The translations under genes were made by a program, and so were the position numbers. DNA of 13,283 bases. Origin: a virus (taxonomy: Duplodnaviria; Heunggongvirae; Uroviricota; Caudoviricetes). How positions within the stretch are numbered: the stretch's first letter is position 1; each line of letters opens with the position of its first letter. The stretch is taken from IMG/VR virus record IMGVR_UViG_2695420646_000004; one strand, given 5' to 3'. Shown in pieces: positions 4,402 to 5,621 of the stretch. The notes under the pieces are model-generated. The model saw only the letters and a list, made by a program, of their open reading frames with translations, was not told the DNA's origin and ran no database searches.

Positions 4402-4767
4402 ATGGCTGAGCTTCGTACACTCCAGAGCAGAATCAAAACTCTGAACACCCGACGGGTGAATATTCTGAAGGGGGAACAGCGTCGTGTCAGTGGCAGTGCA
4501 CGTGTTTCCCTCAAGCGTCATATCTGGCTCAGGGATGCCGGGCAGTGCTGTCTCTGTGGTCGTGTGGTTGACCTCTGTGACAGTGAACTCGATCACCGCA
4601 TTGCACTTCAGTTCGGTGGTGGTAATGAGGAGACGAATCTCTGGACGCTCTGTACCGAATGCCATCGCCAGAAGTCAGTCAGTGAAACGGCGAGTGGTAT
4701 GCCGGACCCGACGCTGCCGGAGGTGTCCGGAGGTCATGGCAGGGCAGACGATATCATCGGACTGTGA
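4402..4767 (+). CDS. HNH endonuclease, phage packaging-associated
   Basis: HNH motif with zinc-binding cysteines (QCCLCGRVVDLCDSELDHRIALQFGGGNEETNLWTLCTECHRQKS). Position immediately upstream of the terminase small subunit is typical of HK97-like cos packaging modules. Confidence 0.85.
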   Translation: MAELRTLQSRIKTLNTRRVNILKGEQRRVSGSARVSLKRHIWLRDAGQCCLCGRVVDLCDSELDHRIALQFGGGNEETNLWTLCTECHRQKSVSETASGMPDPTLPEVSGGHGRADDIIGL

Positions 4768-4857
4768 TCCGCCCCGGGGGGGGGATCATCCGGCGAAAAA
4801 AACGATCGCCACGGACACCGCCCCCCGTCTCATGCAGAGAAAAAATTCCTGTTTCAG

Positions 4858-4987
4858 GCCAGTTAACATGTTAACTGGCTGCCCGGGCATTTTTTCGGTT
4901 TTTATCTTTATTATTCAGTTTGTTGTGCGAAAAAAATGTTAACTGGCTTTTTCAGCAAATGTTAACCAGGCAGCAGTTAACATTTGC
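4858..4987. repeat. Cluster of GTTAAC-centred palindromes and inverted repeats between the HNH and terminase small-subunit genes; candidate cos/terminase recognition or operator sites
   Basis: Perfect 22-bp palindrome GCCAGTTAACATGTTAACTGGC (4858-4879); half-site ATGTTAACTGGC (4936-4947); inverted repeat GCAAATGTTAAC (4955-4966) / GTTAACATTTGC (4976-4987) with a 9-bp spacer. Confidence 0.5.
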
Positions 4988-5057
4988 GGCATGAGACGCC
5001 GGGAAAAATGGGCTGAACCATACCCGGCTGAGTGCGTTATGGACCCGGGAGGAGGCT

Positions 5058-5621
5058 GTGCTGACAACGCAAAAACGAAAATTTGCGCTGGCGCTCATGT
5101 CCGGGAAAAACAAAACAGCGTCAGCCATTGCCGCCGGTTATTCGGCGAAGACCGCCAGGGTTAAAGGCTCGCAGCTGGCAAAAGATCCGGAGGTGCTCGC
5201 GTTTATAGCCCGTAAACAGTGCGAAACGGTGGAGATGGATGAGGTTCCTGTTTACCGGCAGAAAAAATCAGAGCAGGAGGATAAACCCCGTCGCCGTGAG
5301 GTGGCTGCAATACCACAGCCGGACGAAAACAATCCGGAGATGCCTCCGCCCGCGGTGATATCTCATGGTATTGAATATATGGAGGATGGTCTTCCCGATC
5401 CGGTGAAAGCTATGGGGCAGATCCTGGTGGAAAACCTGATAATTGACCCGAAACTGGCACTGGATGCGGCCTGGCGACTGGCGCAGTTCACACACCATAA
5501 AAAAGGCGATGCCGGTAAAAAATCGGCAAAAGGTGATGCCGCGAAAAAAGCGGCTAACCGTTTTGCGGTGCCACCACCTCCCCGACTGGTGGTGAATAAC
5601 CAGAATGAGGAAAGCGGATGA
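5058..5621 (+). CDS. Terminase small subunit (Terminase_2-type N-terminal HTH)
   Basis: N-terminal LTTQKRKFALALMSGKNKTASAIAAGYSAKTARVKGSQL matches the small-terminase DNA-binding motif (LTxKQxxF...AGYSxKTA); GTG start with GGGAGGAGG Shine-Dalgarno; 3' end overlaps the TerL start (ATGA). Confidence 0.8.
   Translation: MLTTQKRKFALALMSGKNKTASAIAAGYSAKTARVKGSQLAKDPEVLAFIARKQCETVEMDEVPVYRQKKSEQEDKPRRREVAAIPQPDENNPEMPPPAVISHGIEYMEDGLPDPVKAMGQILVENLIIDPKLALDAAWRLAQFTHHKKGDAGKKSAKGDAAKKAANRFAVPPPPRLVVNNQNEESG

Follow-up and report, generated by a model that had tools for sequence, protein, structure and literature searches.

The window analyzed here is a 13.3-kb stretch (13,283 nt) from the packaging region of a Shiga-toxin-type E. 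coli prophage. The element in question is a set of five half-sites with the shared core ATGTTAAC, located between an HNH endonuclease gene and terS, the gene for the small terminase (TerS). Sequence comparison indicates that the five half-sites are probably the array by which the phage's own small terminase recognizes its DNA and a functional counterpart of lambda cosB, because the array is in a fixed register to a predicted cos cut, its copies change in concert, the motif covaries with the recognition helix of TerS, it is unique to this site, and it accompanies terS in satellites. The array most likely belongs to an ordinary, known kind of element, with a sequence that shifts in step with the DNA-reading helix of TerS.

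The sequence GCCAGTTAACATGTTAACTGGC at positions 4858–4879 is a perfect palindrome of 22 bp (inverted repeat I6, termed P1). A second occurrence of ATGTTAACTGGC, at 4936–4947, is the third half-site (site 3). The segments GCAAATGTTAAC (4955–4966) and GTTAACATTTGC (4976–4987) are 12 bp each, have 9 nt between them and are 100% complementary (inverted repeat I5, termed IR2). The half-sites are at 4858–4869 (minus strand), 4868–4879 (plus), 4936–4947 (plus), 4959–4970 (plus) and 4974–4985 (minus), which gives five copies of ATGTTAAC within 122 bp: an inverted pair in P1, a direct copy at site 3 and another inverted pair in IR2. P1 has an arm of 11; the window holds no longer perfect palindrome, and an arm of 11 was reached in 0 of 300 shuffles. 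An earlier note on this DNA had described the 22-bp palindrome, the extra half-site and the inverted repeat with the 9-bp spacer, all of which are present where it put them, and its placement of the repeats between the HNH and small-terminase genes is borne out by the gene coordinates and by Pfam. The array occupies the 290-bp gap from the HNH gene (4402–4767) to terS (5058–5621). In the virion numbering, + positions are counted from the predicted left end, with 4829 as +1. The parts of the region are the following:

4402–4767, plus strand: HNH endonuclease gene, encoding the accessory nuclease typical of HK97-type cos modules (Pfam HNH PF01844, E 2e-6; DNase/HNH endonuclease in related phage records), in a position relative to cos that matches HK97 gp74 and Bcep176 gp1
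4776–4818, plus strand: upstream cos block, a nine-G run GGGGGGGGGATCA and about 32 nt to GGACAC, with HK97-like G-run and spacing
4819–4828, no strand assigned: predicted 10-nt cohesive end (cosN equivalent) CGCCCCCCGT, from alignment with HK97 and Bcep176
4829–4850, plus strand: conserved A-tract block CTCATGCAGAGAAAAAATTCC, +1 to +22, near-invariant in at least 35 loci including Burkholderia phages and satellites
4858–4879, no strand assigned: P1, palindrome of two inverted ATGTTAACTGGC half-sites, +30 to +51, the proposed primary TerS site
4880–4935, no strand assigned: T-rich spacer of 56 bp (TTTTTT, TTTTT, TTT..., then AAAAAAA), a proposed bendable or looping segment
4936–4947, plus strand: site 3, a single ATGTTAACTGGC half-site, +108 to +119, with the same flank as the P1 arms, lineage by lineage
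4955–4987, no strand assigned: IR2, GCAAATGTTAAC-9 nt-GTTAACATTTGC, two more half-sites, +127 to +159
5058–5621, plus strand: terS, GTG start at +230, 187 aa (Pfam Terminase_2, E 1.2e-8, residues 2–59)
5618–7279, plus strand: terL, HK97-type large terminase (TerL) with ATPase and nuclease (Pfam TerL_ATPase, TerL_nuclease)

The core ATGTTAAC is found nowhere else in the window, for which 0.22 copies are expected, and five copies were reached in 0 of 200 shuffles. The shorter sequence GTTAAC has nine copies in the window, with five of them in 4862–4981; the expectation for the entire window is 1.8. In the related, complete Stx1a phage LC567821 (49.4 kb) the only ATGTTAAC copies are the five within the 122 bp before terS. 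A search for the half-site in the rest of the prophage, which the earlier note had suggested, thus finds ATGTTAAC only at the array in both the window and LC567821. The inner 20 bases of P1 (4860–4879) show no variation among 55 distinct E. coli intergenic sequences, and the sole variable position of the palindrome is 4859 (C/G). The common E. coli variant of site 3 is ATGTTAACAGGC.

The repeats extend from +30 to +159, between the predicted cut and terS, which is the side packaged first. Lambda cosB and the HK97 TerS site occupy the same side and range. The cohesive end is predicted at 4819–4828, with the packaged left end from 4829, starting CTCATGCAG, because the window aligns with the ends of HK97 and with the terminal repeat of Bcep176. 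The window reads GGGGGGGGGATCA-(28 nt)-CAC-CGCCCCCCGT-CTCATGCAGAGAAAAAATTCC, and the bases directly after CGCCCCCCGT are CTCATGCAGAGAAAAAA. The mapped ends of HK97 read ...GGGGGGGGGATCA-(27 nt)-GAC CGCCGCCAAA and then GTTTGAA...TTTTTTT..., and the HK97 record terminates ...GAC-CGCCGCCAAA. The cohesive end of HK97 is a 10-nt 3' overhang (PMC9410871; PMC11331095). The Bcep176 record has the same 10 nt, CGCACGTTCC, at both ends; its terS side continues directly with CTCACGCGCAGAAAA (block CTCACGCGCAGAAAATTTTCCC), and the HNH and terS genes are at opposite ends of the record. Downstream of the cut the likeness of Bcep176 to the window is clearer than that of HK97. The cut would be about 30 bp upstream of the repeats and so is probably outside 4858–4987. 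The earlier note had regarded this stretch as a candidate cos/terminase recognition region; the recognition part of that proposal is supported, but the cleavage site itself is predicted at 4819–4828.

The cos block is unusually conserved for non-coding DNA. It can be recognized in FSL SP-016, a Salmonella phage, and in >30 loci with a TerS only 35–50% identical to that of the window, from the genera Atlantibacter, Kluyvera, Enterobacter, Phytobacter, Kosakonia, Rouxiella, Serratia, Citrobacter, Pantoea, Erwinia, Proteus, Buttiauxella, Hafnia and Burkholderia. The upstream part (4776–4818), which would be the right-end side of the virion DNA, is retained in all relatives from Enterobacterales to Burkholderia and may serve TerL/HNH recognition or termination. 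The A-tract block at 4829–4850 is unchanged across TerS specificity classes. The G-run (4776–4784, and the same place in L024–L103) is a length-polymorphic homopolymer of 7 to 11 G among E. coli loci; HK97 has nine G. In the PPompW prophages (L188, LC567822.1, 1046–2504), an IS110-family element, ISEc20, terminates exactly at the cos G-run (about window position 4780); the lysis genes and HNH are lost, and the cos core, repeats and terS are retained. None of the INPHARED phage records starts or ends at this region, except for arbitrary starts near terS. A cohesive-end remark in PV189401 was considered as cos evidence and rejected, as it merely accounts for a split gene.

Measured from the predicted cut, the first motif element of 15 lineages begins at +33 to +36, and the terS start varies from +39 to +241. 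The layout of P1, 66–68 bp, site 3, 23–24 bp and IR2 with its 9-bp spacer is kept across lineages with diverged spacers and a changed core. The T-richness of the spacer and the length from P1 to site 3 (66–68 bp) are likewise kept in L193 and L195/196 despite sequence divergence. Most relatives are short forms, in which the gap is approximately 106 bp and a single, slightly imperfect palindrome GTAAACATGTTAAC is located over the terS start (ATG TTA ACA). In lineages where the terS start is changed to ATGCTnAC or GTGCTGAC, GTTAAC-type motifs are present upstream of terS in all cases. The start-changed lineages with the motif at +33 to +36 are the window (GTG CTG ACA), Proteus L020/L108 (ATG CTA ACA), and Pantoea-type L022/L116/L117 and L123/124 (Pantoea-type and other lineages, ATG CTG/CTT ACA). 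The sites are independent of terS coding, since the motifs persist upstream when the start codon loses GTTAAC. L112–L114 are an exception as to distance, with ATTAAC at +36 and with GTTAAC, GTTAAT (twice) and ATGTTAACTG upstream of the G-run.

Two further observations concern the location of these sites. In short-form relatives (L003, 2585–2610; L004–L019), the proposed TerS site spans both the ribosome-binding site and the start codon of terS, and ATGTTAACAGC is invariant at the terS start, whereas later codons vary synonymously. The upstream copies in L112–L114 are approximately 130 to 60 nt before terS, where the HNH gene has its 3' end, on the opposite side of the predicted cut.

The short forms also bear on whether the approximately 185 extra bp of the longer gap have a function. 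These could be a leftover from duplications of the terS 5' end, or from an inserted fragment that displaced terS, with the repeats being copies of ATG-TTA-AC. The motif does represent the ancestral start-codon context of terS, and the extra DNA is missing from short-form relatives. Such an origin without function is nevertheless very improbable, in that the architecture is kept despite diverged spacers and a changed core, the sequence after the core is unlike terS coding sequence, and diversity is very low among 67 distinct E. coli sequences. The repeats in L199 are TGTTTATACC, yet its terS start is still ATGTTAAC, and the L199 repeats are therefore not copies of its terS start.

The half-sites change in concert. 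Within a lineage the half-site variant (GTTAAC, GTTTAY or GTTACAC) is identical at all copies, and single or direct-repeat copies match the palindrome arms. The flank common to the P1 arms and site 3 is CTGGC in the window, CCACC in L193 and TATACC in L195. L193 (TerS 64% identical) has the palindrome GGTGGTTAACATGTTAACCACC and site 3 ATGTTAACCACC, with the flank altered on all three half-sites. L194 and L195/196 have TATAAACATGTTTATA as the palindrome, ATGTTTATACC at site 3 and AAATGTTTAC-N9-GTAAACATTT as the second repeat (in L195, AAATGTTTAC-AGGGCAGCG-GTAAACATTT). All five cores are changed in these lineages, but their spacing is maintained (34, 40, 106, 130 and 147 compared with 34, 40, 108, 131 and 148 in the window). 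The core change from GTTAAC to GTTTAT or GTTTAC is found in L194–L196 and L199; the distant lineage L199 has six TGTTTATACC units, and L200–L202 have AAAGTTACAC units of the GTTACAC class. The palindromy of P1 is preserved through changes in both arms in L193 and L195.

Preserved palindromy is also characteristic of nucleic-acid hairpins, i.e., an intrinsic terminator or other RNA structure after the HNH gene, or a cruciform. P1 could form a stem of 9–10 bp and has T-runs beginning no more than 10 nt after it, and there is a weak terminator-like site at 4883–4898. However, half-sites that are not palindromic, or are direct repeats (site 3; L199, L117, L200), share the arm sequence, and several lineages have no palindrome at the first position. 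The folding energy of 4840–5075 is ordinary (z -1.19), and 23 of 200 shuffles fold with equal or greater stability; terminator-like matches number about what chance gives (2 compared with 1.5 expected), and there is no match to an Rfam family. A hairpin function is thus scarcely credible. The match of single and direct-repeat copies to the palindrome arms is what would be expected of protein-recognition sites.

The half-site type tracks TerS residues 35, 38 and 39 of the recognition helix (the helix sequence after the GYS motif). KTARVKGSQL, or its I/K variants, is found with GTTAAC, KSARCKGSQL with GTTTAY, KTARVKG(W/C)QL with GTTACAC and KSARSKGSQL with the hybrid GTAAAC.AT.GTTAAC. The GTTTAY pairing occurs in TerS backgrounds that are 76%, 66% and 46% identical to the window TerS. 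There are no mismatches between helix and half-site among the GTTAAC, GTTTAY and GTTACAC classes in the loci compared. L112–113 (KTAKVKGSQL) have none of the three motifs downstream of the cut, and ATTAAC is present at +36 instead. The C35 class consists of four loci from non-IMG/VR sources (L194, L195, L196 and L199). No C35-type TerS was found in IMG/VR, and the 91 matches to TATAAACATGTTTATA in that collection are unrelated AT-rich sequences, none of them in a cos context.

Structural modeling suggests that TerS residues 1–56 (5058–5225) represent a helix-turn-helix DNA-binding domain with the recognition helix at 33–41. The start of terS was set by homology (MLTTQKRKF compared with MLTAQKRKY in relatives). 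The AlphaFold model of the N-terminal domain has a predicted local distance difference test score (pLDDT) of >92 and four helices at 4–14, 19–25, 33–41 and 44–56. Its best fold match in the PDB by Foldseek is the DNA-binding domain of SF6 TerS (4zc3/2cmp), with target TM-scores of 0.84/0.81 and a root-mean-square deviation of 1.6–2.4 Å; the next structural matches are the small terminases of PaP3 and NV1. Sequence-only matches to the PDB are weak (E 0.2–0.4). Residues 35, 38 and 39 would be in the recognition helix, since the model places 33–41 in the third helix of an SF6-like fold.

Diversity in this region has a distinct pattern. A block of low diversity at window positions 4852–5300 contains the repeats and the first ~80 terS codons (pi about 0.02, range ~0.01–0.03), and its flanks are more diverse, at 0.06–0.07 in the HNH gene and cos core and up to 0.18 in the middle and C-terminus of terS. 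This pattern suggests that the sites and the DNA-binding domain form a unit of mosaic exchange, with a breakpoint at each side. The repeat region itself shows very low diversity among the 67 distinct E. coli sequences. Nucleotide diversity was rejected as proof of purifying selection, as synonymous sites in the N-terminal codons of TerS also fall within this block.

The same cos core with repeats of the GTTACAC class is also found in islands that resemble phage-inducible chromosomal islands (PICI). These are ~8.5 kb in length and are located beside the E. coli ccm operon (L376, L377 [gene 10001–10489]; L200, L201, L204). They contain an integrase, an AAA_25 or D5_N primase/helicase, small open reading frames (ORFs), the cos core, AAAGTTACAC repeats, terS and a capsid-like 307-aa gene; genes for TerL and HNH are absent from them. 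The islands' TerS is their own Terminase_2 protein with W38 in the recognition helix, and the predicted cohesive end (L200) is CGCCCCCCGT, the same as in the window. The islands look like satellites that would use a helper's TerL and HNH together with a private pair of TerS and sites. A common cut site with private TerS/site pairs is what a model of recognition by TerS predicts.

The satellites, together with the register and covariation, bear on a second possibility raised in the earlier note, that a late-region regulator uses the repeats as operators. Such a regulator, of the late or of the packaging region, would be a phage or host protein, not TerS, that controls terS/terL or a divergent promoter. 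Palindromic and inverted half-sites are typical of operators, there is a weak promoter-like match on the minus strand (4965–4936), and the site in short-form relatives covers the terS ribosome-binding site and start codon. The motif, however, is nowhere else in the complete genome of LC567821, no regulator gene adjoins the array, and promoter-like matches are not above shuffles (2 compared with 0.7 +/- 0.7 expected). Lambdoid late genes are transcribed as one Q-antiterminated transcript, which also counts against separate operators here. The first site is in register with the cos core and not with terS, the motif type follows the TerS recognition helix, and the array accompanies terS in satellites that lack a late operon. 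The operator explanation is accordingly disfavored and improbable. The other suggestion of the earlier note, cosB-like sites for the small terminase, is supported by position, fixed register and covariation with the helix.

Several points weigh against recognition of the array by TerS. A single site at the start codon suffices in most relatives, so the array of five sites is not essential to this packaging family, and coding and the initiation of translation account in part for the conservation of ATGTTAAC in short forms. As judged from the record, the 10-nt repeat at the termini of Bcep176 would be a cohesive end. The HK97 and window cos cores align with like landmarks (G-run, ~30 nt, ACCGCC) and spacing but with only 45% identity over 114 columns. 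Physical ends or TerS binding data for this phage group were not found in the records and literature searched. The relation between repeats and TerS is correlative. It may partly be co-inheritance, because the repeats adjoin the DNA-binding domain within a single block of low diversity; the features are <300 bp apart and could be linked in mosaic recombination. Independent switches in specificity are also few (~3–4). Lastly, the invariant A-tract block at +10 to +18 could be the true TerS contact or a further one, or could be contacted by TerL/HNH.

This last point is part of an alternative in which another protein (HNH, TerL, or IHF/Fis/H-NS on the T-rich spacer) binds the repeats, and TerS reads the invariant A-tract block at about +10 to +22. 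Lambda cosB requires IHF, which counts in favor of this alternative. HK97 TerS binds +15 to +29 with an A-tract (PMC11331095), and the AGAAAAAAT block is in the equivalent range. HK97 TerS is, however, unrelated in sequence, so the geometry need not transfer. The A-tract block is constant across TerS classes and the repeats are not, and satellites without HNH or TerL keep private repeats beside a private TerS. There are no matches to the IHF consensus WATCAANNNNTTR, with up to 1 mismatch, in the spacer at 4880–4935. Binding of the repeats by a protein other than TerS is therefore unlikely, and recognition by TerS is the preferred reading of the array.

The array would function as follows. The inferred binding is that of a TerS oligomer, which would read the half-sites on concatemeric DNA through recognition helix 33–41 of its SF6-type helix-turn-helix domains. 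P1 would be a fixed anchor 30–50 bp from the cut. Beyond the T-rich and probably bendable spacer, the sites ~70 and ~100 bp downstream would contact more subunits to form a specific nucleoprotein complex. This complex would bring TerL, which is HK97-type, and the HNH nuclease to the G+C-rich site, with the exact cut predicted at 4819–4828. Staggered nicks would then leave a 10-nt cohesive end, presumably of 3' polarity, and packaging would run toward terS and the head genes. The HNH protein of HK97 stimulates cos cleavage (PMC9410871).

The array has both likenesses to and differences from known packaging sites. Lambda cosB is arranged as R3-I1-R2-R1, with binding sites for gpNu1, and lambda and phage 21 are known for their packaging specificity. 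As in lambda cosB, there are short TerS repeats in both orientations between the nick site and terS, over ~130 bp, with a bend-prone segment after the first site. As in lambda and phage 21, specificity would be set jointly by the TerS helix-turn-helix and the sites. Unlike lambda, the TerS is of the Terminase_2/SF6 type and not gpNu1, and the half-site is 8–12 bp around GTTAAC, unrelated to the 16-bp R elements, with a first site that is a perfect palindrome. The IHF consensus was not found between the first and second TerS sites, where lambda has I1. The predicted cohesive end is 10 nt and HK97-type, not a 12-nt 5' end, and the module includes an HNH nuclease.

Similarity to HK97 is in the gene order HNH–cos–terS–terL (the same order is found in SP-016 and Bcep176) and in TerL, which is homologous to HK97 gp2 (BLASTP E 9e-12, 23% identity, 489 aligned columns). 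The cos core has like landmarks, a nine-G run ~30 nt before ACCGCC at the predicted cut and an A/T-tract after it, but at 45% identity overall this resemblance is tentative. TerS recognition on the terS side of the cut would also be common to both; the minimal site in HK97 is +15 to +29, and HK97 TerS threads DNA through a central tunnel (PMC11331095). HK97 has one 15-bp site, whereas here the first site begins at ~+33 and the five half-sites of the E. coli lineage reach +159. HK97 gp1 has no significant BLASTP similarity to the window TerS (E 1.1) and no Terminase_2 match, and there is no useful similarity between HK97 gp74 and the window HNH protein. The earlier note had assumed an HK97-like setting, which agrees with the HNH gene, the TerL homology and the cos layout but does not extend to TerS, which is SF6/SPP1-type.

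With SPP1/SF6 G1P the window TerS shares the fold family, in that the N-terminal domain superposes on 4zc3/2cmp, and the Pfam family Terminase_2. SPP1 pac (pacL/pacR) is likewise made up of multiple short boxes, repeated on bent DNA. Packaging in SPP1 and SF6 is headful (pac) and has no HNH partner, unlike the cos-phage layout with a predicted cohesive end found here, and the site sequences are dissimilar. Bcep176 and its relatives (Stanholtvirus) have the same TerS family (35–37% identity; Bcep176, 37%), an HNH gene at the opposite record end, CTCACGCGCAGAAAATTTTCCC after the 10-nt terminal repeat, and an inverted GTTAA...TTAAC over the terS start. They differ in having one small start-codon inverted element with no extended array, and the recognition helix ATASAAGSRL. 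The array is not a homologue of lambda cosB or of the HK97 TerS site, as the TerS family, the missing IHF site and the motif differ. A TerS with a predicted SF6/SPP1 fold is placed here in what by sequence is an HK97-type, HNH-dependent cos module.

Many lambdoid prophages of E. coli match the window at 94–100% identity, among them Stx1a-, Stx2a- and Stx2c-converting phages, 2851, BP-4795, YYZ-2008 and 1717; vB_EcoS_phi330, one of the matching records, is assigned to the genus Pankowvirus. Lysis genes are upstream, and terL (5618–7279) is followed by a prohead protease–major capsid fusion (7343–9280) and a portal gene (9492–10856). The fusion is a 645-aa ORF that consists of a Peptidase_S78 prohead serine protease and an HK97-fold Phage_capsid domain. 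A 407-aa ORF at 10853–12076 has no credible Pfam match and is labelled as a portal protein in a related record. There are nine N (masked or unknown bases) at 12474–12482, within the head-tail gene region. The 251-bp region with cos and the repeats has 2,948 places in E. coli genomes, spread over 1,244 of the 5,426 complete ones and with up to 7 places per genome; therefore several co-resident prophages share one packaging specificity.

A broader and more tentative proposal, which may well prove incorrect, is that the array and the TerS helix form an exchangeable cassette for packaging specificity on a shared cos core read by TerL/HNH. There would be at least three classes, GTTAAC with V35/S38, GTTTAY with C35 and GTTACAC with W/C38. 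A change of one or two residues might retarget the system, and co-resident prophages and satellites might in this way partition or hijack the machinery. If this is true, the cassette would let co-resident lambdoid prophages (up to 7 module copies per genome) and satellites with a private TerS share one cutting machinery.

The matched series of recognition-helix and half-site variants and the connection to satellites are the part of most interest to packaging specialists. These natural pairs represent a test set for how SF6-type small terminases read DNA; the only small terminase–DNA structure found in the literature searched (HK97) has an unrelated TerS. The module is present in Stx1-, Stx2a- and Stx2c-converting prophages, often in multiple copies per genome. 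Knowledge of the cut and of the TerS code would provide defined cos cassettes for transduction tools. It would also enable prediction of the cross-packaging and mobilization of prophages, defective prophages and satellites, and with these the spread of Shiga toxin and effector genes.

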